This document shows, piece after piece, positions 2,799 through 14,736 of a stretch of 16,564 nucleotides of DNA (position 1 is its first letter; every line of letters starts with the position of its first letter). Below the pieces are notes generated by a model. It saw only the letters and a list, made by a program, of their open reading frames with translations. It did not search any database and had not been told where the DNA came from. The stretch covers positions 13,085 to 29,648 of the forward strand of contig JBHEMM010000006.1 in the NCBI GenBank assembly GCA_046262595.1. Direction: 5' to 3'. The translations under genes and the position numbers were made by a program. This DNA comes from Vulcanimicrobiaceae bacterium (GTDB taxonomy: Bacteria; Vulcanimicrobiota; Vulcanimicrobiia; Vulcanimicrobiales; Vulcanimicrobiaceae).

Positions 2799-3494
2799 AT
2801 GGGAGAGATGACGGAGATCGCGCGACCTGACGGCGGACGCGTCCCGGTTTATGCGGCGCACCCGCAGAGTGGCGGTTCAGCGCCGGGTATCGTCGTGGTC
2901 CAAGAATGGTGGGGCCTGATCGACGAGATCAAGGGCAGGGCGGACGCTCTGGCCGCCTGCGGTTTTCGCGCCGTCGTGCCCGACCTGTTCCGCGGCCGCA
3001 AAGCGGCCGTTGGCGGTGAAGCGAATCACCTGATGGAAGGGCTGAACTTTCAGGACGCTTTTTCGCAAGACGTGCGCGGCGCGCTGCTTCATTTAAAGAA
3101 CGACGGCGCAAAGGCCGGCGTGCTGGGATACTGCATGGGCGGCGCGCTCGCCCTGCTTGCAGCGATGCACGTGCCTGAAGATGACGCGTCCGTGGTGTTT
3201 TACGGCATGCCGCCGGCGCAGGCCGGGGATCCCGGAGCGATCAAGATTCCGGTGCAACTGCACTTCGGCACGGCGGATGAGTTCTATGCGCGCGACGCGG
3301 TCGAACGGCTCGAGGGAAATCTGAAGGCAGGCGGCGTGCCGTACGAGATGCATTGGTATGAAGGCGCCGGTCACGGCTTCTGCAATCCAAACCAGCCTGG
3401 GGAGTCGGGATTGGGAAACTACGACGGAAAAGCGGCGCGTCTTGCATGGGAACGCACGGTAGCGTTTCTTACTCGAACTTTGTCCCCGCGTTGA
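2799..3494 (+). CDS. Dienelactone hydrolase family protein
   Basis: VVVQEWWGL, PDLFRG, nucleophile elbow GYCMGG, FYG, YEGAGHGF (catalytic His). Confidence 0.92.
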   Translation: MGEMTEIARPDGGRVPVYAAHPQSGGSAPGIVVVQEWWGLIDEIKGRADALAACGFRAVVPDLFRGRKAAVGGEANHLMEGLNFQDAFSQDVRGALLHLKNDGAKAGVLGYCMGGALALLAAMHVPEDDASVVFYGMPPAQAGDPGAIKIPVQLHFGTADEFYARDAVERLEGNLKAGGVPYEMHWYEGAGHGFCNPNQPGESGLGNYDGKAARLAWERTVAFLTRTLSPR

Positions 3495-4272
3495 CGGGCG
3501 CCGAACGCATCGCGCCTTGCTCTAAACCCCATTTGCGCAACAGGCGGTCGTATCGTCCATCGGCGATCAGCGCTTTCAGCGCCGTTTGCACGCGATCGCG
3601 CAGCGCGGCGTTGTGCTTCGAAACGGCGATGCCGTAACGCACGACGTTGAACTGTGAGCCTGCGACCGCATAGGCGCGTCCGCCTCCCACCGTGCGTGCA
3701 AGGTGCACGACGACGGGGTAATCAGAGATGTGGGCGACCGTCTCGCGGGCGTGGAAGTGGTTGAGCGCCTCGCCGTCGGTAGCGTACGCATGCACGTCGA
3801 TGCCTTTAAGACCCGCACGTACGCATTTTTTCGACTGCGCCGCCGCGGCCGACTCCTGCGAAGTGCCGCGCTGCAGATCGACGCTCATGCCGCAAAGGCT
3901 CGCCAGATTAAAGATATGGCGCGGATTGCCCGCACGCACGAGAATACCGCTGCCTGCCAAGAAGTAATCGATGAAGTCCACTTGCTGCGAACGTTTGCGC
4001 GTATCGGAGATAGCGGAGATCGCAAGGTCGTACCGCCCGGCGTTCACCGACTCGAGCAAATCGTTGAAATCGTGGTTGCGGAAGTCCGCACGCGTGCCCA
4101 TCTGCGCTGCAAGGGCGGCAGTTAAGTCATAGTCGAAGCCTTGAACCGCTTTGGAATGCGTTGCATAAAACTCCAGCGGCGCATAAGAAATGTCGGATCC
4201 GACGCGCAGCGCGGAGGCTGCCGCGGCGGCCGGGATAAGCGCAAAGAGCAGCGCGGCAATACGAACGAGCAT
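3469..4272 (-). CDS. Polar amino-acid ABC transporter substrate-binding protein (SBP_bac_3)
   Basis: ATG 4272 with signal peptide MLVRIAALLFALIPAAAAASA. Motifs LRVGSDISYAPLEF, GFDYDL, SAISDTRKRSQQVDFIDYF, YGIAVSK and DGRYDRLLRKWGL. Confidence 0.9.
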   Translation of the reverse strand: MLVRIAALLFALIPAAAAASALRVGSDISYAPLEFYATHSKAVQGFDYDLTAALAAQMGTRADFRNHDFNDLLESVNAGRYDLAISAISDTRKRSQQVDFIDYFLAGSGILVRAGNPRHIFNLASLCGMSVDLQRGTSQESAAAAQSKKCVRAGLKGIDVHAYATDGEALNHFHARETVAHISDYPVVVHLARTVGGGRAYAVAGSQFNVVRYGIAVSKHNAALRDRVQTALKALIADGRYDRLLRKWGLEQGAMRSAPVNAGTKFE

Positions 4273-4311
4273 AAACCTAGTATCGGCCGCAAGGGCCGCC
4301 GGATTAGTGCA

Positions 4312-5355
4312 ATGAAGCTCGCCGCGGTGCAGGATCTTCCGTTTCTTCAGGCGTGCCGCCGGGAACGCACGCCGTTCACACCGGTCTGGCTGATGCGGCA
4401 AGCCGGGCGGTACCTGCCCGAATACCGCCGCGTACGCGATCGTTATTCGTTTTTGGAGCTCTGCAGCGACTCGAGCGCTGCCGCTGAGGTCACCGTCAAC
4501 ACCGTGCGGCGGTTAGGCGTCGATGCGGCAATCATTTTCGCCGATATTCTGCTGCCGCTGGTACCGATGGGTTTGGGACTGCGCTACGACAAAGGGGAGG
4601 GACCGCGCATCGAACGTCCGGTTCGAACGCCGGCCGACGTTGAAGCCATACCGCCGGTCGACGTTCGCGAGCCGCTCGCCTTCGTCGCGCGAACCGTTCG
4701 GCTCGTGCGAGCCGAACTCGAAGGAAAAACTCCCGTCATCGGCTTCGCCGGCGCGCCTTTTACCGTCGCGTCGTACGCGATCGAAGGCGCGGGTTCGAAA
4801 AACTATTTGGCCACAAAAACGCTCATGCACGGCGATCCGAAGACTTGGCACGCGTTCATGGAGCGCATCAGCTCGCTCACCGCGGATTACCTCAACATGC
4901 AGATCGACGCCGGCGCACACGCGGTGCAGCTTTTCGACAGCTGGGTGGGAACGCTTTCGCCGCAGCAATACCGCACGTTCGTGCAGCCGCATTCACGCGC
5001 GGTTATCGCCGCGCTGCGCCCGGGAACGCCCGTGCTGCACTTCGGCACGATGACGGGAAGCCTGCTGTGCGACATGCGGGATGCCGGCGGCGACGTCATT
5101 GGACTTGACTGGCGCGTCGAATTGGACGAAGCATGGGAACGGCTCGGCCCGAACGTCGGCGTGCAGGGCAACTTCGATCCGGCGCTTCTCTTTACCGACG
5201 CGGAAACGATCCGCACCGGCGCGCGCGACATTCTACGTCGCGCGAACCGCCGGCCCGGCCACATCTTCAATCTCGGCCACGGCATCTTGCCGCAGACGCC
5301 CGTTGATAACGTGCTCGCGCTCATCGACGCCGTGCACGCGATAAGCCGCGCGTGA
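4312..5355 (+). CDS. hemE: Uroporphyrinogen decarboxylase
   Basis: PVWLMRQAGRYLPEY, DAAIIFADIL, IGFAGAPFTVASY, QLFDSW, HIFNLGHGI. ATG at 4312. Confidence 0.97.
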   Translation: MKLAAVQDLPFLQACRRERTPFTPVWLMRQAGRYLPEYRRVRDRYSFLELCSDSSAAAEVTVNTVRRLGVDAAIIFADILLPLVPMGLGLRYDKGEGPRIERPVRTPADVEAIPPVDVREPLAFVARTVRLVRAELEGKTPVIGFAGAPFTVASYAIEGAGSKNYLATKTLMHGDPKTWHAFMERISSLTADYLNMQIDAGAHAVQLFDSWVGTLSPQQYRTFVQPHSRAVIAALRPGTPVLHFGTMTGSLLCDMRDAGGDVIGLDWRVELDEAWERLGPNVGVQGNFDPALLFTDAETIRTGARDILRRANRRPGHIFNLGHGILPQTPVDNVLALIDAVHAISRA

Positions 5356-6230
5356 AACAGGTGACGCTGCTGGGATTCGGCGGCCCTGAAACACCGAAAG
5401 ACGTGCGGCCGTTTCTGGATCGCATCGTTGCCGGCCGCCCGATACCGCCCCAGCGGTACGAACAAGTCGTCGACCATTACCGCGTCATCGGTGGTGCTTC
5501 GCCGTTCAACGAACTGACACGGCGGCAAGCAAACGCGCTGCAAGCGGAGTTGGAGGCGCGCGGCGCGGCGCTTCCCGTGAGCGTCGCATACCGTTTCAGC
5601 GAGCCGTTTATCGCGGATGCGGCGCGAGCCGCGAACGCGCGCGGTGATGAAATCATCGCCGTCATCTTAGCCGCGCATCAGAGCGGCACGAGTTGGGACA
5701 AGTACGTCGAGCTGTTTCCGCGCGCGCGCTTTACGCAGCCGTTCTACGACAAGCCGGGATTCGTGCAAGCGAACGCGGCGCGGATTCACGATGCGCTCAC
5801 AGCGCTCGGCCGAAGCGACTTCTCGCAGACCACACTTATTTTCACCGCGCACAGCATCCCGCAAGCGATGGCGCACCGCAGCGGGTACGAGGCGCAACTG
5901 CAGCGCTCGGCGCAGCTCGCGGCGCGCGCGGCTGGCGCAACCGCGTACGAGATCGCGTACACCAGCCGGAGCGGGCCGCCGGCCGAACCGTGGCTCGAGC
6001 CGGACGTGCGCGATCTGCTGCCCGTACTTTCCGCGCGCGGCGTACGAGAAGTTCTCGTGGACCCGATCGGCTTTTTATGCGACCACGTCGAGGTGCTTTA
6101 CGACTTGGACATCGGCGCGGCCGCTGTAGCGAATCGTTTGAATATGCGCCTATCGCGCGCAAGGGCGCTGAACGATCATCCCACGTTCATCGGCGCCCTT
6201 GCCGACGCCGTTCAAGCGTGCCTCGGGTAG
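5352..6230 (+). CDS. hemH: Ferrochelatase (likely coproporphyrin ferrochelatase CpfC)
   Basis: LLGFGGPE, HY..IGGASP, FTAHSIP, YTSRSGP...PWLEPD, PIGFLCDHVEVLYDLD. GTGA overlap with the hemE stop. Confidence 0.95.
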   Translation: MKQVTLLGFGGPETPKDVRPFLDRIVAGRPIPPQRYEQVVDHYRVIGGASPFNELTRRQANALQAELEARGAALPVSVAYRFSEPFIADAARAANARGDEIIAVILAAHQSGTSWDKYVELFPRARFTQPFYDKPGFVQANAARIHDALTALGRSDFSQTTLIFTAHSIPQAMAHRSGYEAQLQRSAQLAARAAGATAYEIAYTSRSGPPAEPWLEPDVRDLLPVLSARGVREVLVDPIGFLCDHVEVLYDLDIGAAAVANRLNMRLSRARALNDHPTFIGALADAVQACLG

Positions 6231-7612
6231 CCGTTCTCGGCGGCGGCATCAGCGGGCTCATAGCGGCGCACCGGCTGCAAGAACTCGCCCAAGAGAGCGG
6301 CATGGCACTCGAGATCGCCGTCTACGAGCGCGATGCACAGGCCGGAGGCTGCCTGCGCACCGTGCGCGAGAACGGCCTCGTCATGGAACTGGGCGCGGAT
6401 TCGCTGCTGATAGGGAAGCCCGCGGCATCAGGGCTCATCGAACACCTGCGCCTGGCCGCGGAAATCGTCGAAATGCAGCCGCAGTACCGCGGCGCGCGTC
6501 TTCTGCACGGCAACCGCTTGCGCCCGATACCCAGAGATTTTCGTCTGTTCGCTCCGCGCTCGCTTCCGGCGCTGCTGCGCAGCGGCATTTTCTCGCCGGC
6601 CGGCGTGGCGCGCGCCGCACTCGAACCGTTTGTGCCCGCGCGAAAAGAGACGAGTGATGAAAGTTTAGCTTCGTTTGTCGCGCGCCGCTTCGGGCGCGAA
6701 GTCCTCGAGCGGCTCGCGCAGCCGCTTGTCGGCGGCATCTACTGCGCCGATCCGCGACGCCTCTCGATGCAGACGGCGCTGCCGCAGTTCGTGGAACTGG
6801 AGCAACGGTACGGGAGTGTCGTGCGCGGACTTACGCACGTTTCCCGGGATCCGCAGGCAAACCGGCTCGTGAGTTTGCGCGGCGGCATGGCCGCCCTGAT
6901 ACACGCTCTCATGCAGCGCTTGGACGGCGTCGTGTACACCGGCGTTGCCGTGGAACATATCGAACGCACGGCCGATGGATGGAACGTACGCCTTGCCGGC
7001 GGCAGATCGGATCGCGCCGATGCGATCGTTTGCGCCCTGCAAGCGCCGGCCGCGGCCGCGCTGCTGCGTCCGGTTGATGCCGGCATCGCGCGCCTGCTCG
7101 AACAGATCCGCTGCAACTCGGTCGCAACCATCAATCTCGTCTACGATGGCGCATCGGTGCGTCTGCCGCCGGCCACCGGCTTCGTCGTGCCGTTCACCGA
7201 AGGGCGCCGCATCGTCGCCGCAACGTTCAGCTCGCAAAAGTATCCGCACCGCAGCAGCCCTGACGAAGTGCTGGTGCGCGTCTTTGCCGGCGGGGCGCTT
7301 CAAGAAAACGTTTTGCAGACGTCCGATGAAGGGCTCGCGCGGCTCGCGCATACGGAGCTGTGTGCGGTTCTGCCGGTGCGCCAAGCACCAAAGCGCTCGC
7401 TCGTGACCCGCTGGAGCGCCGTCTTGCCTGAATATGCGCCCGGGCACCAGACGACGATGCAGGTCCTTCTTGCCAGGTCCCGTGCCATTCCGGGCATCAA
7501 CTTCGCCGGCTGTGCCTACAGCGGCGTTGGCATCCCCGATTGTGTCGCCGGCGCGCAGGCCGCCGCCGGGTCGGTTTTTGGGTATATCAGAGCCCGAAAG
7601 GAGCTTAACTAA
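6218..7612 (+). CDS. hemY: Protoporphyrinogen/coproporphyrinogen oxidase, HemY type
   Basis: GTG 6218. VAVLGGGISGL FAD motif, ELGADSL, DESLASFVARRFGRE, QPLVGGIY, GVGIPDCV. Confidence 0.93.
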   Translation: MPRVAVLGGGISGLIAAHRLQELAQESGMALEIAVYERDAQAGGCLRTVRENGLVMELGADSLLIGKPAASGLIEHLRLAAEIVEMQPQYRGARLLHGNRLRPIPRDFRLFAPRSLPALLRSGIFSPAGVARAALEPFVPARKETSDESLASFVARRFGREVLERLAQPLVGGIYCADPRRLSMQTALPQFVELEQRYGSVVRGLTHVSRDPQANRLVSLRGGMAALIHALMQRLDGVVYTGVAVEHIERTADGWNVRLAGGRSDRADAIVCALQAPAAAALLRPVDAGIARLLEQIRCNSVATINLVYDGASVRLPPATGFVVPFTEGRRIVAATFSSQKYPHRSSPDEVLVRVFAGGALQENVLQTSDEGLARLAHTELCAVLPVRQAPKRSLVTRWSAVLPEYAPGHQTTMQVLLARSRAIPGINFAGCAYSGVGIPDCVAGAQAAAGSVFGYIRARKELN

Positions 7613-9735: not shown

Positions 9736-10407
9736 TCACTCCTGAAAATCGACAGTAAACAAGTAAGAGCCCGGAATATTCTTGCACGCGCGCTCTTCGG
9801 GCGCGTACCGGCTCGCCTTTGCGGCATGAAGCGCCGCCATGTCGAGTTGCTGGTTTCCGGAGGTGCCGTAGATCGCGGCGCCGGACACGTTGCCTGCCGC
9901 ATCGAGATCGACTTTGACTTTGACTTGTGCAGCGATGCCTTGCGCGTCGGGCGGCGCTTGAGGCGTCACGGCGTCTACGGCGCTCGCTGCGACGTCGGGC
10001 GCGCTGCACGCGGGCTTCGGCGTAGGCGTGGGCCGTTGCGGAACACCGGTGGCCGTCACATCAGGCGCGGCGCTCGACGAGGGACTGGGCGCAGGTGTTC
10101 CCGGCGGTGCGGATGCAAGTCCAATGTGATGCGCCGCCGTGTCACGGTTATGCGTACGAACGAGATGGACGGGCAGGCGTTGCTGCGTGTTTGAAACGGC
10201 GCGCTGCGGCGTTACGGGATGCGGCTTGGGCGGCTGCGGCGTCGGTGTGGACTTCGGTAAGGCAAGACGGATAATGTGCAATCCCTCGGGCAGTTGTTCC
10301 GGCGCGGCTTGCGCCGGATGCGGATGCACGAGCGCGGCGACGGCGAGATGCACGGCAAGTGATCCGGCGATCGCGATGCGAAAGATACGAAGACGCGAAC
10401 CTTTCAT
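9736..10407 (-). CDS. TonB family energy transducer
   Basis: ATG 10407. TM helix with S-x3-H (SLAVH), a Pro-rich linker, and a TonB-C domain (VKVKVDLDAAGNV...TSGNQQLDMAALHAAKASRYAP). Confidence 0.85.
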   Translation of the reverse strand: MKGSRLRIFRIAIAGSLAVHLAVAALVHPHPAQAAPEQLPEGLHIIRLALPKSTPTPQPPKPHPVTPQRAVSNTQQRLPVHLVRTHNRDTAAHHIGLASAPPGTPAPSPSSSAAPDVTATGVPQRPTPTPKPACSAPDVAASAVDAVTPQAPPDAQGIAAQVKVKVDLDAAGNVSGAAIYGTSGNQQLDMAALHAAKASRYAPEERACKNIPGSYLFTVDFQE

Positions 10408-10436
10408 ATCGCAAGAACAAAAGGAATACGCATATT

Positions 10437-11513
10437 GTGACGATCGTCGTGCTTGGCCTGGGCGCAATGGGAAGTGCGGCGCTCTACCACCTCGCGCGGC
10501 GAGGCGAAAACGCGATCGGCATCGAGCAGTTCGGTCCGGCGCATACGAAGGGCGCTTCGCACGGGCGCTCGCGCATCATCCGGCAGGCGTATTTTGAAGA
10601 TCCGCGGTACGTGCCGCTGCTCTTGCGCGCGTACGAACTTTGGGATGCGTTGAATGAAGCCGCGGCCGAATCGGTGTGGGATCTGTGCGGCGGCCTAGCA
10701 ATCGGCATGAAAAACTGCGCGCTCATTTCGGGAAATCTGCGCGCTGCACAACGCTACGGTTTACCGCACGAAGTGCTCGATCGCCGCGCGATGGCGGAAC
10801 GCTTCCCCGCATTCCGGTTGAACGCGGACGAAATAGCGGTGTACGAAGCTGCCGCCGGCGTGCTCTTTCCGGAGCGATGCGTGCTCGAACATCTGCGCCA
10901 AGCCGTTGAAGCGGGCGCGCAAGCGCATTTCGGAACGCGCGTGACGGCGATTGCGCATCGCTCAGAGGGGATCGAACTTTCAACCGCGGACGGCGCCACG
11001 ATCGCGTGCGACCGGCTCGTCGCGACGGCGGGGCCCTGGATACGCGATTTCTTCGACGTGCCGGTGCGAGTGGAGCGCAACGTTCAGCATTGGTTCGCCA
11101 AGCCCGCGGCCGATGCGCCGCAGCAGATCTTCATGTTGGAACGCGCTGGATGGCCGCGCTTGTTCTATGGTTTTCCCGACTTCGGTGACGGCGTCAAAGC
11201 CGCGTTTCATCACTCCGGTGAGTTTGTGAGCGATGCCGGCGAGCACGATCCGGTTGCGCGGCCGGACGAGGTTCACGCCGTCGGGGCAGCGTTGGCGCAA
11301 ACGCTTTCGCACGCGCCGGGTGAACACTTACGATCGGAGCCGTGCATGTATGCCGTCACGCCGGACGAACACCGCAGCGTAGCCGTGGCCGGCGGCTTTT
11401 CCGGTCATGGCTTCAAATTCGCGTCCGTCGCCGGCGAAATTCTTGCTGACCTTGCAACCGCAGGCACGACGAGCCGCGATATTTCGCTGTTCGATCCGCT
11501 GCGCTTCGCCTGA
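10437..11513 (+). CDS. solA: N-methyl-L-tryptophan oxidase / monomeric sarcosine oxidase family
   Basis: GTG 10437 after AAGGA. GLGAMGS, ASHGRSRIIRQAYFE, covalent-FAD CMY, GFSGHGFKF. A short in-frame deletion is suspected near 11372. Confidence 0.9.
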   Translation: MTIVVLGLGAMGSAALYHLARRGENAIGIEQFGPAHTKGASHGRSRIIRQAYFEDPRYVPLLLRAYELWDALNEAAAESVWDLCGGLAIGMKNCALISGNLRAAQRYGLPHEVLDRRAMAERFPAFRLNADEIAVYEAAAGVLFPERCVLEHLRQAVEAGAQAHFGTRVTAIAHRSEGIELSTADGATIACDRLVATAGPWIRDFFDVPVRVERNVQHWFAKPAADAPQQIFMLERAGWPRLFYGFPDFGDGVKAAFHHSGEFVSDAGEHDPVARPDEVHAVGAALAQTLSHAPGEHLRSEPCMYAVTPDEHRSVAVAGGFSGHGFKFASVAGEILADLATAGTTSRDISLFDPLRFA

Positions 11514-11537: not shown

Positions 11538-11816
11538 ATGGAAACAGGCGAGGGACTGAGCCGCGCGCTGAGCGCCGGCGATTACGTCATCCTAAGCACG
11601 GGCGCGATCGCGCGCGTCTCAACGGCGTATCCGCAAGGCTACCATGGTCCGGTGGAGATGACGCTGGACGGCCAGCCCATGAGCGAGCTTGCGGCAACGC
11701 TCGTGCTGCCCGATAACGATCAGGCCGCGGCAAGGCAAGGCGACGGCGGAGTTGCCGGCGGCAGCAGCGCGCACGCCTCGCATGTGCGTGAACCGCACCT
11801 GCGCATGGAAGATTGA
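11538..11816 (+). CDS. Hypothetical protein (92 aa)
   Basis: Fills the gap between solA and the GH1 stop without overlapping either. No recognised motif. Confidence 0.55.
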   Translation: METGEGLSRALSAGDYVILSTGAIARVSTAYPQGYHGPVEMTLDGQPMSELAATLVLPDNDQAAARQGDGGVAGGSSAHASHVREPHLRMED

Positions 11817-11826
11817 GCCGCCGGCT

Positions 11827-13944
11827 TCAGAAGTCGCGGATGATCTGCGCATACTGGGCGCTCGCCTCGGTGGGTTTACGCGTCAGCTGCGGATCGTCAT
11901 CGAGATCGATGTGATACAGGCCGAAGTCGCTGTTGTCGTCGAACGGCAATCCCCACTCCCGGTTCGATGTGATGCTCCAACAGACGTACGCTTCCAGCGG
12001 CGCGCCGCGCTCGCGCGCGCGTTTCACCTGCGCGATGTGCGCACGTAAATAGCGGGCGCGCGAAAAGCCGTCGGCGCTCGTGACGCAGCCGTTTTCGATC
12101 ACGACAATGGACTTGCCCGGAAACGCGTCCTGCGCTTCGCGTATGATTTCCTCGAGCACGCCCGGCCAGACGGGCGCATTCGCATAGCGGCATTCCGCCG
12201 CCGCGGCGAGCCGGTGGAATTGCAAAAACGACGGCGCGCCCCAGTAGTAATCCAAACCGACATAATCCAGCGCGCCAATGCATTCCGGCGGGCAGAGAAA
12301 TGCAGGCAACTTTCCGGCCATGCCCAGGTTCCACCAATTCGTTCCAATCAGCGTCCCAAACATCCCGATCGACTTGCGGAAGCCGTCAAACAAACGGAAC
12401 GCCGAACGGGTTGCGCTCAAGCGCCGTTTTCCGCTCAAAGCGATGAACGTTACGCGCGGCGTGCGGCCGTGAAAGATCTGTGCGGCAATATGCCTGGCCA
12501 CATCGGGCTCCAGGCCCGTGTACGCTCCGCGCTCGTCGCGCATGCACAGGCCTTCCACGCCCGGGTGCACGCCGACGCGAAGCACGCCGCGCTTGCGGAT
12601 TGCCTGCAGCGATTTATCCAGATCGGGAACGCTTTGGGCGTTCAACAAACGGCCTTCGACCGTTTTGCCGATATCGGCGACCGTTTTGCGGTTGTCGTTG
12701 GCGGGCAGCCCGGCAGTGCTCTTTTTAAAGTCGCGCAGGGCAGCATCCACGGCGTTGAGCAGCGCGCGGCTTCCCAACGGCATCGCGACAGCAAACAACT
12801 GCGGATTTGCCTGCAACCGCACGAGCGTCAGATCGCCGCCCGCGAACGGACGAAGCATGACATCATCGTCGAAGAGCACGTCGATCGCGCGCGCACGCAG
12901 CGCGGCGGCCGCAGCGGCGATGTCTTCGTAATAGCACACGTCCGCATCGACGAAGAGCCCGCCCGCGATTTTGGCCGTCGCGGTCCCGCTCACAACACCG
13001 GCGCGGCCGCGCCACCGGGCCGGATCGGACGGCGCGTCGCGATCTCGCCAATGCAGCAACGCAAGATGAGCGGCAAAATACGGCTCTGAGAAAAGCGCGT
13101 GCTCCCTGCGCGCTTGCGTCATCGTCAGCTGCGCGATTGAGATGTCGACCTCTCCGCGATCCAACAGCGAGGTCTGCGAGAGACGCGCCGCTTGGCGCCG
13201 CACGTTTTCGGGCGACTTCACGCGCGTGGCACTGCGATCCACCAAGCGCTGGAGCCAGCGCGGGAGGCCCAAAACCAGCGGGTTCGCGCCGACCAGCGCC
13301 GCGGGGCACACCTCGCGTATCGCGGCGCGCGCCTGCGCGTGCGCGCGAAACAAATTTGGAATCAAACGCAGGACGGCATCCATCTGCTGCTCGCCCGTCG
13401 CAAACGGCTCCATGCCCGGCGGCATCGGGTACGCGCGCATCCAAAAGCCTTTGATGTACCCGTAGACCAGTTGATTCGGCTCGTTCAGCGTGACGTAATA
13501 GTCGATCAAGCTGCCCAGACGGCGCGCCGCTTGCGCCGCATATGCGGCGACGCGGCCGGGAAAGCCCGGATCCAGCATGCCATCGCCGTCCCCCGCCGCC
13601 TGCACGTGAAGCGGCCACGTGTTATGATGCAGCGTAACGATCGTTTTCATGCCGGCATCGCGTACGTATTGAAGCACGCTCCGGTAGTGCTCGAACGCCG
13701 CGTCGTCCCATACGCCGCTTTGCGGTTCCAAGCGCGCCCATGCAAGCGAGAGACGGAACGCTCTGCAGCCCAGACCCTTGGCCAAATCGACGTCCTCGCG
13801 ATACCGGTTCCAGAAGTCCGTTCCCCGGCCGCGCGGTGTCAGGCCGCGAACGCGTTCCCATACGTCCCGCACGTCGTCGTTGCCGTCGTAGGCCTCGCAC
13901 TGGTGGTCGGCCGTTGCCACTCCGAAGCGGAAATCACGTTCCAT
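11827..13944 (-). CDS. Glycoside hydrolase family 1 with an inserted, circularly permuted SBP_bac_3 domain
   Basis: ATG 13944, 705 aa. GH1 motifs FRFGVATADHQCE, DFWNRYRED, FRLSLAWARLEP, TLNEP, DYVGLDYY, IENG, WSITSNREW and FGLY. SBP-like sequence spans about 12412-13167. Confidence 0.9.
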   Translation of the reverse strand: MERDFRFGVATADHQCEAYDGNDDVRDVWERVRGLTPRGRGTDFWNRYREDVDLAKGLGCRAFRLSLAWARLEPQSGVWDDAAFEHYRSVLQYVRDAGMKTIVTLHHNTWPLHVQAAGDGDGMLDPGFPGRVAAYAAQAARRLGSLIDYYVTLNEPNQLVYGYIKGFWMRAYPMPPGMEPFATGEQQMDAVLRLIPNLFRAHAQARAAIREVCPAALVGANPLVLGLPRWLQRLVDRSATRVKSPENVRRQAARLSQTSLLDRGEVDISIAQLTMTQARREHALFSEPYFAAHLALLHWRDRDAPSDPARWRGRAGVVSGTATAKIAGGLFVDADVCYYEDIAAAAAALRARAIDVLFDDDVMLRPFAGGDLTLVRLQANPQLFAVAMPLGSRALLNAVDAALRDFKKSTAGLPANDNRKTVADIGKTVEGRLLNAQSVPDLDKSLQAIRKRGVLRVGVHPGVEGLCMRDERGAYTGLEPDVARHIAAQIFHGRTPRVTFIALSGKRRLSATRSAFRLFDGFRKSIGMFGTLIGTNWWNLGMAGKLPAFLCPPECIGALDYVGLDYYWGAPSFLQFHRLAAAAECRYANAPVWPGVLEEIIREAQDAFPGKSIVVIENGCVTSADGFSRARYLRAHIAQVKRARERGAPLEAYVCWSITSNREWGLPFDDNSDFGLYHIDLDDDPQLTRKPTEASAQYAQIIRDF

Positions 13945-14004: not shown

Positions 14005-14736
14005 ATGAGATTCAGCAACAAGACGTGCCTCGTAACAGGAGGAGGCTCCGGCATCGGACGCGCCACTTGCCTGCGCATGGCCGCAGAGGGCGCCAACGTG
14101 GTGGTGGCAGACCTGCGGCAAGACGCGGCGCAAGCGACCGTTGACGCGATTACCGCGGCAAACGGTCAAGCCGTCGCCGTCGCGGTGGACGTGGGGAACT
14201 CCGCTCAGGTGCAAGCCGCGATCGCCAAAGCGCTACAGACGTACGATTCGCTCGACGTGATCGTGAACGACGCGGCGATGATGACGTTCAACCCGATCGT
14301 CGACCTTGCCGAAGCGGACTTCTTCCACGTCATCACGACGAATCTGGGCTCGGTGTTTTTCTTTGCGAAGTACGGCGCACCGCACATGCCGCCCGGATCG
14401 GCGATCGTGAACATCAGTTCGGTGCACGCGCATGAAACGACCGACAACGTCGTACCCTATGCGGCCTCAAAGGGCGCCATCGAAGCGTTCACGCGCGGTT
14501 TCAGCATGGAGATGGAATCGCGTAAGATCCGCATCAATTCCGTGGCGCCCGGAGCGGTCGATACGCCCATGCTCTGGAACAATCCCGACATCAAGAGCGG
14601 CGCCGAAAAAATAGAAGGCGCGGTGGGTAAACCCGAAGATCTCGCTGCTGCGATATGCTTTATGGCCTCGGACGAAGCGCGTTTCATCAACGGCACGACG
14701 CTGGTTGTCGACGGCGGCCGTTTGGACATTCTGTAG
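14005..14736 (+). CDS. SDR family oxidoreductase (glucose 1-dehydrogenase-like)
   Basis: TGGGSGIG, NISSVH, YAASK, INSVAPG, FINGTTLVVDGG. Confidence 0.92.
   Translation: MRFSNKTCLVTGGGSGIGRATCLRMAAEGANVVVADLRQDAAQATVDAITAANGQAVAVAVDVGNSAQVQAAIAKALQTYDSLDVIVNDAAMMTFNPIVDLAEADFFHVITTNLGSVFFFAKYGAPHMPPGSAIVNISSVHAHETTDNVVPYAASKGAIEAFTRGFSMEMESRKIRINSVAPGAVDTPMLWNNPDIKSGAEKIEGAVGKPEDLAAAICFMASDEARFINGTTLVVDGGRLDIL

Follow-up and report, generated by a model that had tools for sequence, protein, structure and literature searches.

We report here that one gene of Vulcanimicrobiaceae bacterium encodes a glycoside hydrolase family 1 (GH1) barrel with a complete class II (SBP_bac_3-type) amino acid-binding domain nested in the connection between strands β5 and β6, and that this solute-binding protein (SBP) domain is circularly permuted. 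The gene lies in a 16,564-nt stretch of assembly GCA_046262595.1 (contig JBHEMM010000006.1, positions 13,085 to 29,648), the whole of which was analyzed and is hereafter called the window. It occupies window positions 11827–13944 on the (−) strand, and its translation runs free of stops for 705 aa, which bears out the uninterrupted open reading frame (ORF) described in a first-pass annotation made from the sequence letters without database searches. All residue numbers below are those of this 705-aa protein (P0001 in our homologue set). Its sequence predicts a cytoplasmic retaining β-glycosidase that belongs to a divergent subfamily of GH1 and keeps all of its catalytic and sugar-binding residues. 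We consider the architecture of a permuted SBP nested in GH1 to be unusual and robust, and we put forward the hypothesis that it acts as a switch, which would make the protein a plausible natural ligand-gated enzyme.

Both Pfam families were recovered from the window protein, each in two stretches. Specifically, PF00232 (GH1) matched with an E-value of 1.8e-37 (129.3 bits vs. a gathering score of 22.6) in two stretches flanking the insert, and PF00497 (SBP_bac_3) matched with an E-value of 6.5e-13 (49.0 bits vs. a gathering score of 26.4). In NCBIfam, the best matches of the insert were Lys/Arg/Orn-, Asp/Glu-, and cystine-binding proteins, all under their cut-offs (e.g., E-values of 4.3e-14 for TIGR01096 and 3e-11 for NF008885). 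The chain order was determined with phmmer, using residues 226–560 against Protein Data Bank (PDB) sequences. We found that insert positions 33–184 (protein residues 258–409) aligned with residues 94–249 of the PEB1a chain (2v25), while insert positions 218–283 (protein residues 443–508) aligned with PEB1a residues 28–93, i.e., the two SBP blocks are in reversed order and meet exactly at PEB1a 93/94. The reversal was likewise seen against AncQR (4zv1) and AncCDT-1 (5t0w), and the insert does not follow the colinear chain order of SBP_bac_3 proteins. Based on the reversed PEB1a alignment, the chain joins the SBP midway along lobe 1, continues through lobe 2 to the canonical C-terminal helix, crosses a linker of ~34 aa, and passes through the canonical N-terminal third before exiting. 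It follows from this path that two conserved helices fasten both ends of lobe 1 to the barrel, whereas lobe 2 is free. The first-pass annotation had proposed split GH1 matches flanking two SBP matches, a permuted order of the SBP segments, a rejoined junction KRRLSA/LLDRGEVD, and the retention of one whole domain; each of these points held, with the junction coinciding with the PEB1a 93/94 breakpoint and the contiguous blocks, together with the fold searches below, accounting for an entire domain. A nested domain with permuted connectivity is also what characterizes the engineered insertion/permutation switches, and the export signal and ABC permease partnership typical of SBP_bac_3 proteins are both missing, as the GH1 match starts at residue 3 and no transporter genes flank the gene.

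The predicted structure agreed with this assignment. An AlphaFold2 (AF2) model of the full protein, built on a 48-sequence alignment (A1), reached a mean predicted local distance difference test (pLDDT) score of 90.4 and a predicted template modeling (pTM) score of 0.91, its only weak internal block being residues 431–440 in the linker (pLDDT of 62). DSSP analysis of this model placed strand 217–221 (LVGAN, β5) before the insert and strand 561–565 (YVGLD, β6) after it, which is where the insertion had originally been located, and the connectors were modeled as helices (residues 229–255 and 515–545). In Foldseek, the whole model retrieved GH1 β-glucosidases only (E-value of 2e-20; target-normalized TM score of ~0.70), consistent with a (β/α)8 barrel. 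A model of the insert alone, built on a 19-sequence alignment (A2), had a pLDDT of 79.3 and a pTM of 0.75, with values below 50 at insert-model residues 168–189 (linker). It matched class II amino acid SBPs (e.g., PEB1a, E-value of 1e-10), and its best geometric fits were open, ligand-free glutamine-binding proteins (1ggg; TMt of 0.60, root mean square deviation [rmsd] of 2.6). Single SBPs shared 152–180 columns with the insert in Foldseek, compared with 253–264 columns for tandem SBPs (BvgS, 4q0c; GlnPQ SBD1-SBD2, 6h30), and full-length alignment by tandem SBPs only is what a circular permutant should produce. In addition, a VIA-align search of 48,161 chains with the insert model gave Z scores of 12 to 14.1 to many class II amino acid SBPs, and the isolated domain 2 of TmArgBP (6gpm) matched insert-model residues 42–130 with a Z score of 12.7 (rmsd of 2.1). 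The three pieces of lobe 1 appear to pack as one lobe, judging by model confidence rather than by measured contacts. Taken together, the AF2 models and the Foldseek and VIA-align searches agree with the forecast of an intact barrel plus one bilobed SBP. A complex prediction in which GH1-N, GH1-C, and the insert were entered as separate pieces scored 0.03 against a mark of 0.32 and returned no contacts, a result that counts neither for nor against this arrangement.

Next to the insert, the barrel retains what is needed to classify it as a GH1 enzyme. The acid/base motif TLNEP corresponds to residues 152–156 (E155 codon at 13480–13482), and the nucleophile motif IENG, with E617 encoded at 12094–12096, pairs with the (V/I)TENG motif of solved GH1 enzymes; in the phmmer alignments to these enzymes, 'vvieng' paired with 'yvteng' and 'wsitsnrewg' with 'wslmdnfewa'. 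Both motifs had been read as intact near 13481 and 12095, and the codon positions and alignments confirm that reading. All 48 homologues share N154-E155-P156 and E617-N618-G619. Among 56 Verrucomicrobiota orthologues, H107, N154, E155, Y567, and E617 were kept in all, and Q15, W656, E663, and W664 in 55, the remaining one carrying Ser in place of Q15 and an alignment gap over W656, E663, and W664. All nine of these residues were kept in 22 of 22 Eremiobacterota-type sequences, including the forms without lobe 2 described below. From GH1 structures, we take these residues to contact the glycone, and the retention of E663 presumably points to a non-phosphorylated sugar. The protein scored 148.4 bits against TIGR03356, the GH1 β-glucosidase equivalog model, far under the cut-off of 478.5, and it is therefore, by sequence, a GH1 member but not an equivalog of a typical BGL. 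With a GH1 match that begins at residue 3, the protein shows no signal peptide, and the N-termini of 23 of 24 representatives were short and non-hydrophobic (P0124 was hydrophobic); the earlier proposal of a protein without a signal peptide is consistent with both results.

The architecture is widespread. In a search of 5.8 billion proteins, the best 120 of 960 matches all (120/120) contained both Pfam families, and 118 of these 120 measured 680–759 aa. An exhaustive search among representatives clustered at 50% identity gave 208 proteins at E ≤ 1e-30; among the 150 matches listed of those 208, 17 were full-length (680–792 aa, down to 37% identity) and colinear with the hidden Markov models (HMMs) of GH1-N, the permuted insert, and GH1-C. 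Within the phylum of the window, 103 of 301 sampled genomes had a match at E ≤ 1e-20, one of which (G010) covered residues 5–168 only. Matches were found in 96/206, 2/3, and 3/22 genomes of families f1, f2, and f3, respectively, and in 22 of 100 genera, these tallies including three unpublished genomes (G231, G178, and G276) on which no individual claim depends. The source names comprised Eremiobacterota/Vulcanimicrobiota, Verrucomicrobiota, and one Thermoflexales (Chloroflexota) metagenome-assembled genome (MAG), and ESM Atlas clusters of 93, 176, and 51 members showed the same Pfam pair. When species-representative genomes were searched with a Verrucomicrobiota query, 80 of 166 relatives were kept, all of them from Verrucomicrobiota and six of them from cultured strains (Luteolibacter algae KCTC 22040, Luteolibacter sp. 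AS25, L. marinus NBU1238, Luteolibacter sp. Populi, Haloferula sargassicola NBRC 104335, and H. luteola YC6886). The assemblies that carry the architecture include complete chromosomes of cultured strains (NZ_CP151837.1 and NZ_CP161812.1) as well as single-contig genomes.

These counts bear directly on the concern that the protein is an artefact, i.e., a chimeric assembly, a frameshifted GH1/SBP fusion, or two SBP fragments that do not cooperate. The window does come from a fragmented MAG (122 contigs, 89.7% complete), but full-length homologues with the same uninterrupted architecture, for which the first-pass annotation had called, were found across many independent assemblies, the complete chromosomes and single-contig genomes among them, and a misassembly shared by all of these is implausible. 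Moreover, the SBP pieces abut exactly in canonical numbering and were confidently modeled as one domain. We regard the artefact reading as effectively refuted. The MAG of the window holds one copy of the gene, and three other genomes (G182, G125, and G191) hold two full-length copies each. Separately, matches in four genomes (G047:C4, G146:C2, G049:C1, and G288:C2) were split over frames or interrupted by stops (three TGA codons in G049), which suggests that some copies in the window's family are pseudogenes.

We then consider whether the nested domain could bind a ligand. In Mycobacterium tuberculosis GlnH, the ligand's α-amino group and its α-carboxyl group are held by Ser164, Arg169, and Asp250, residues conserved across amino acid SBPs, and the acidic side chain is held by Arg147, Trp232, and Thr162 (PMC6069109). 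Motif spacing and the PEB1a alignment allow these residues to be mapped provisionally onto the window protein, with conservation counted in 48 homologues (down to 35% identity). Ser164 would correspond to T274 (Thr in 36 and Ser in 5 of 48), Arg169 to R279 (46/48), Asp250 to D360 (41/48), and Arg147 to R508 (46/48), while Thr162 would correspond to a different residue, Q272, and Trp232 is not conserved in the window protein. Residues 256–291 carry the canonical D-x6-T-x-T-x-x-R...FSxPY motif, and D267 (48/48), T276 (45/48), and E479 (47/48) are likewise conserved. Residue 460 is His in 25, Arg in 14, and Lys in 3 of the 48 homologues; H460 takes the position of PEB1a Lys19. Because of the GlnH/PEB1a mapping, the window protein can be described as having the generic amino acid triad together with a basic pocket into which an anionic side chain would fit, and the T-x-T-x-x-R arginine and second-lobe aspartate noted at first are indeed present. 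None of the 56 Verrucomicrobiota orthologues lacks lobe 2, and D360, R508, R460, and E479 are retained in 56/56.

Our proposed mechanism is as follows. The nested domain would bind a small amino acid-like or anionic ligand in a pocket of lobe 1 (T274, R279, H460, and R508), with D360 supplied from lobe 2. Occupancy or closure of the domain would then modulate the glycosidase, either allosterically via the two connector helices or as a lid, and the hydrolysis of a cytoplasmic β-glycoside would thereby be coupled to a metabolite signal. We put the probability that a small-molecule ligand modulates the glycosidase, in an allosteric or lid-type manner, at roughly 0.5. The narrower proposal of a natural allosteric switch, in which a permuted Venus-flytrap amino acid sensor in the triose-phosphate isomerase (TIM)-barrel glycosidase turns the predicted cytoplasmic enzyme on or off, is more doubtful and is offered tentatively. 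The ligand of such a switch might be an acidic amino acid, given R508 and H/R460, and the forms without lobe 2 or without any insert could represent evolutionary 'unregulated' derivatives.

Several observations weigh against ligand gating, and most of them concern lobe 2. Sequence identity and the ratio of nonsynonymous to synonymous substitution rates (dN/dS) were obtained from 76 pairs with a dS of ~1.2, and only the rank order of these values is to be trusted because dS is near saturation. By these measures, lobe 2 shows no more constraint than the linker (identity of 0.39 vs. 0.40; dN/dS of 0.44 vs. 0.43), with lobe 1 (identity of 0.55–0.57; dN/dS of ~0.31) and the barrel (identity of 0.68–0.73; dN/dS of ~0.15–0.17) evolving more slowly and the connector helices as conserved as the barrel (dN/dS of 0.18–0.26). 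A Venus-flytrap switch depends on the movement of lobe 2, yet no other part of the protein is under less constraint. Furthermore, lobe 2 (approximately residues 292–382) is cut out in frame in two genomes of family f2 (G055 and G151; 636 and 626 aa), and a larger deletion is found in genus g25 (G122; 594 aa). G055/G151 and G122 constitute two deletion lineages at separate positions inside SBP-bearing clades (97–98% support in the Shimodaira–Hasegawa-like approximate likelihood ratio test [SH-aLRT]). These forms keep R279, R508, H/R460, and E479 as well as every GH1 catalytic residue. Within the putative pocket, R279 is replaced by Thr (48), Leu (5), Val, or Ser in 55/56 Verrucomicrobiota orthologues, followed by a two-residue deletion, so the Ser/Thr-Arg-Asp triad that is seen in the sequence of the window protein is not kept in the Verrucomicrobiota clade; in addition, D360 is Thr or Leu in two genomes of family f3 (L029 and L030). 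The genomic context offers no help either: when ORFs were clustered over 19 Eremiobacterota loci (the window plus 18 regions of ~16–19.5 kb), we found no conserved neighbor pointing to a substrate or effector, with no flanking cluster, apart from the gene and its shadow frames, present in more than 4/19. Finally, the barrel does not need the SBP domain, because subfamily members without the insert and with intact NEP and ENG motifs are scattered among the SBP-bearing ones (see below). The absence of lobe 2 from some forms, the relaxed constraint on it, and the missing Arg279 of one clade all make a simple flytrap model less convincing. As a separate observation, the match in G236 (G236:C3:958-2802; genus g45) covers residues 4–290 and 383–705, the two parts lying 18 nt apart in one 677-aa frame, which suggests a further lobe 2 deletion in a genus that also includes a full-length form (G244).

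The same data could be read to mean that the SBP domain, acquired in a single event, is today no more than a scaffold (for stability, oligomerization, or partner docking), that it binds no small molecule, and that its conserved residues are a generic fold signature. Such a structural relic would explain why most of the conserved positions of the insert (D267, FSxPY, G477/E479, and G391) belong to the general SBP_bac_3 signature, and it is in keeping with a lobe 2 whose evolution resembles that of the linker and which has repeatedly disappeared, as well as with the existence of insert-less relatives. Yet ligand-contact positions that the fold does not need have been kept, namely, R279, D360, and R508 in the proportions given above and both R508 and D360 throughout the Verrucomicrobiota orthologues, all 56 of which have the full bilobed domain, and dN/dS is below 1 for both lobes. 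On balance, we judge a relic to be unlikely and give more weight to ligand-dependent modulation of the glycosidase.

The history of the insert was traced within its GH1 subfamily, which is marked by NPLxLGLP after β5 and NWWxLGMAGxLPxxLCPxEC before β6. Six members without the insert (P0136, P0142, P0148, P0153 [457 aa], P0154, and P0155) share the flanking motifs and the catalytic residues, and P0140 (588 aa), which also keeps both, has a degenerate insert that looks like a decayed one. Connector A is found in insert-less relatives as well (common NPLxLGLP), and the NWWNLGMAG motif of connector B is matched in insert-less subfamily members but not in canonical GH1. A tree of 47 rows was built from GH1 columns only with a quick IQ-TREE search and rooted on 10 chosen outgroup sequences; its deep branches are poorly resolved. 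The subfamily formed one clade against canonical GH1 (100% SH-aLRT), and the insert-less rows were scattered among SBP-bearing rows, implying 6 changes, at least 2 of which are forced by well-supported branches. The insertion thus appears, from these sequences, to be old in the subfamily and to have been trimmed or lost repeatedly. The insert-less relatives have a variable connector of ~30–100 aa where the SBP sits, and they may be secondary losses in a tree that is poorly resolved at depth. A comparison of 104 SBP-bearing with 7 insert-less sequences revealed only four positions of differential conservation (Q158, P196, A239, and G563), too few to map an interface. As for the permutation itself, it most likely arose from a tandem SBP that lost both of its outer ends. 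The β5–β6 site also holds other, unrelated inserts of ~60–150 aa in SBP-less members (P0142, P0148, and P0154), and that of P0142 (551 aa; Chloroflexota cluster) includes a hydrophobic stretch at this site, which seems to be an insertion-tolerant hot spot.

Variation at this site brings in a further alternative, in which the insert is a substrate-recognition module: the basic pocket of lobe 1 would hold the carboxylate or amino acid part of a glycoconjugate while the sugar occupies the GH1 −1 subsite, and the insert would set aglycone specificity. A specificity-determining region is expected to vary in length and content within a subfamily, as the insertion site does, and the glycone residues are invariant while the insert varies; moreover, the conservation of R279, R508, H/R460, and E479 even where lobe 2 is deleted fits a function that does not involve flytrap closure. 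On the other hand, the insert sits in the α5 region between β5 and β6, which may not extend to the catalytic face, no candidate substrate pathway is encoded nearby, and R279 is lost in Verrucomicrobiota. We consider this possibility improbable, on a par with the structural relic, and favor modulation of the glycosidase by a ligand of the nested domain over either of them.

With respect to the gene itself, its stop-to-stop frame extends upstream to a TTG at 14214, and homologue N-termini read M-x-x-x-FRFGVATADHQCEA. ATG 13944 is the supported start because of these N-termini, the GH1 match from residue 3, and the divergent short-chain dehydrogenase (SDR) gene, which begins upstream at 14005. 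The parts of the protein are listed in Table 1.

Table 1. Segments of the GH1-SBP gene in the window and the basis of each assignment
Feature	Residues	Window coordinates	Strand	Basis
Whole coding sequence, 705 aa plus stop codon	1–705	11827..13944	−	Stop-free translation, homologue N-termini
GH1 barrel, N-terminal part, β1–β5; Q15, H107, N154-E155-P156	1–228	13261..13944	−	PF00232 stretch 3–220 = profile 7–218; DSSP strands
Helical connector A, β5 to insert	229–255	13180..13260	−	DSSP helices 229–240, 245–250, 252–255; dN/dS 0.26
SBP lobe 1, middle segment; D267, T274, T276, R279, Y289	256–291	13072..13179	−	Aligns with PEB1a chain 94–127, AncQR 65–98
SBP lobe 2, including D360	292–382	12799..13071	−	SBP alignment; TmArgBP domain 2 (6gpm) fold match
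SBP lobe 1, canonical C-terminal segment, strand plus long helix	383–410	12715..12798	−	PEB1a chain ~225–249; DSSP E382–388, H393–409
Linker, SBP canonical C-terminus to canonical N-terminus	411–444	12613..12714	−	pLDDT drop; identity 0.40
SBP lobe 1, canonical N-terminal segment; H460, G477, E479, R508	445–512	12409..12612	−	PEB1a chain 28–93, AncCDT-1 15–60
Helical connector B, return to barrel; NWWNLGMAG motif	513–545	12310..12408	−	DSSP H515–529, H537–542; dN/dS 0.18
GH1 barrel, C-terminal part, β6–β8; Y566/Y567, E617-N618-G619, W656, E663-W664	546–705	11830..12309	−	phmmer vs. solved GH1; residues invariant in the 48-sequence alignment

In the window, the GH1-SBP gene has as neighbors a convergent DAO-family FAD oxidoreductase gene at 10359–11513 (+) and the divergent SDR gene at 14005–14736 (+), which is followed by RecQ; no transporter or sugar-pathway gene adjoins it there. 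The DAO oxidoreductase gene, of the glycine/D-amino acid oxidase type, runs toward the 3′ end of its GH1-SBP neighbor and is followed by a 92-aa ORF (11538–11816, [+]) that has no Pfam match. The pairing of these two ORFs with the GH1-SBP gene was not conserved in the other 18 Eremiobacterota loci. Among the Verrucomicrobiota, 56 of the 80 loci (those of ≥12 kb) were compared, and in 20 of the 56 the gene directly upstream on the same strand encodes a protein that carries a LysM domain at its C-terminus. This gene ends a few bases before the GH1-SBP start in L032:1959–2861 (+), L035:6457–6996 (+), and 18 further loci. Farther off, we found MatE (15), CLC (13), UxaC (8), and lactonase (8) genes. 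Because the genomes are related, recurrent Verrucomicrobiota neighbors may reflect inherited synteny rather than functional linkage, and the LysM gene could be an operon partner or could only be part of such synteny.

Elsewhere in the window, a canonical, colinear SBP_bac_3 gene at 3469–4401 (−) matched PF00497 in one stretch (E-value of 4.6e-33; profile positions 1–130). It was considered as the donor of the insert and ruled out, at least as a recent donor, because BLASTP showed no significant match between its product and the nested domain. Its stop-to-stop frame overlaps a long upstream extension of the hemE ORF, which belongs to a heme biosynthesis cluster at 4141–7612 (+) of overlapping or abutting ORFs for URO-D (hemE), ferrochelatase (hemH), and a flavin amine oxidase-type protein that is probably hemY/protoporphyrinogen oxidase. 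A last side observation concerns cysteines of the GH1-SBP protein, seven of which (C16, C60, C467, C551, C555, C620, and C655) are conserved in 36–48 of 48 homologues and include those of an LCPxEC motif before β6. In the 56 Verrucomicrobiota orthologues, C60 and C551 were kept and C620 was kept in 39, but the other conserved cysteines were not, and the idea of a family-wide metal or redox site was dropped for that reason; by sequence conservation, a family-wide metal or disulfide site is unlikely, and one confined to a clade is possible.

Domain insertion combined with circular permutation of one partner is a routine way to build engineered biosensors and switchable enzymes. If the present family proves to be ligand-controlled, evolution would have arrived at the engineers' solution and maintained it in no fewer than three phyla. 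Full-domain, lobe-1-only, and insert-less forms make up a natural control set within the family, and its cultured hosts (Luteolibacter and Haloferula) make the coupling of flytrap closure to barrel catalysis directly testable. Such work could reveal a cytoplasmic β-glycoside and a link to amino acid status in Eremiobacterota and Verrucomicrobiota. Should the insert turn out to be no more than a specificity module or a scaffold, the protein still offers a clear instance in which nature has combined circular permutation with nested insertion. The domain pair is already visible in automated annotation (JGI double names, the NCBI name 'family 1 glycosylhydrolase', and an Atlas cluster name). In the openly accessible full-text literature that was searched, which included the CIRPIN survey of circular permutations (PMC13552848), we came across no article describing either the nesting or the permutation of an SBP in a GH1, or a characterized member of the family, and the one article that contains both 'SBP_bac_3' and 'GH1' (PMC13111413) does so only as Pfam names in a table. 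The first-pass statement that no characterized natural example was known is consistent with this search.

Comparison with known systems places the protein between several of them. It resembles the canonical GH1 β-glucosidases (4r27, 8znw, and Thermotoga maritima BglA, 1od0) in its barrel, NEP and ENG motifs, and W...E-W glycone motif, but differs from them in the NWWxLGMAGxLPxxLCPxEC segment before β6 and in the 259-aa nested domain. With periplasmic amino acid SBPs (PEB1a, 2v25; AncQR, 4zv1; GlnBP, 1ggg; GlnH, 6h1u), it shares the fold, the signature motifs, and the Thr/Ser-x4-Arg + Asp triad, whereas its insert is permuted at 93/94, joins the old termini through a ~34-aa linker, is embedded in an enzyme, and has neither a signal peptide nor adjacent transporter genes. 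Among natural proteins, the nearest precedent is MltF (membrane-bound lytic murein transglycosylase F), which breaks glycosidic bonds and has an SBP_bac_3-like module, and MltF chains were among the matches of the insert (6hqh by phmmer; 5aa1 and 5uh0 by VIA-align, with Z scores of 9.7 and 10.6, respectively). The closest artificial precedent is found in engineered switches, which follow the same design principle of joining a binding-protein fold to an enzyme by domain insertion, sometimes with permutation, so that a ligand modulates the activity; the MBP–β-lactamase RG13 is reportedly one such binding-protein/enzyme switch. According to the respective reports, the SBP-like N-terminal module of MltF allosterically activates its glycan-cleaving domain upon muropeptide binding by switching it into the active conformation (PMC10746161), and a xylose-stimulated xylanase was obtained from chimeras of xylanase and xylose-binding protein (PMC4896006 and PMC4536891). 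In MltF, the SBP module is N-terminal, colinear, and periplasmic and the catalytic domain is a lytic transglycosylase, while in the window protein the SBP is permuted, nested within the GH1 catalytic fold, and predicted to be cytoplasmic. The engineered switches, in turn, are man-made and in several cases have the enzyme inserted into the binding protein, whereas the family described here is natural and cross-phylum, with the binding protein as the permuted guest and with a putative dependence on its ligand.

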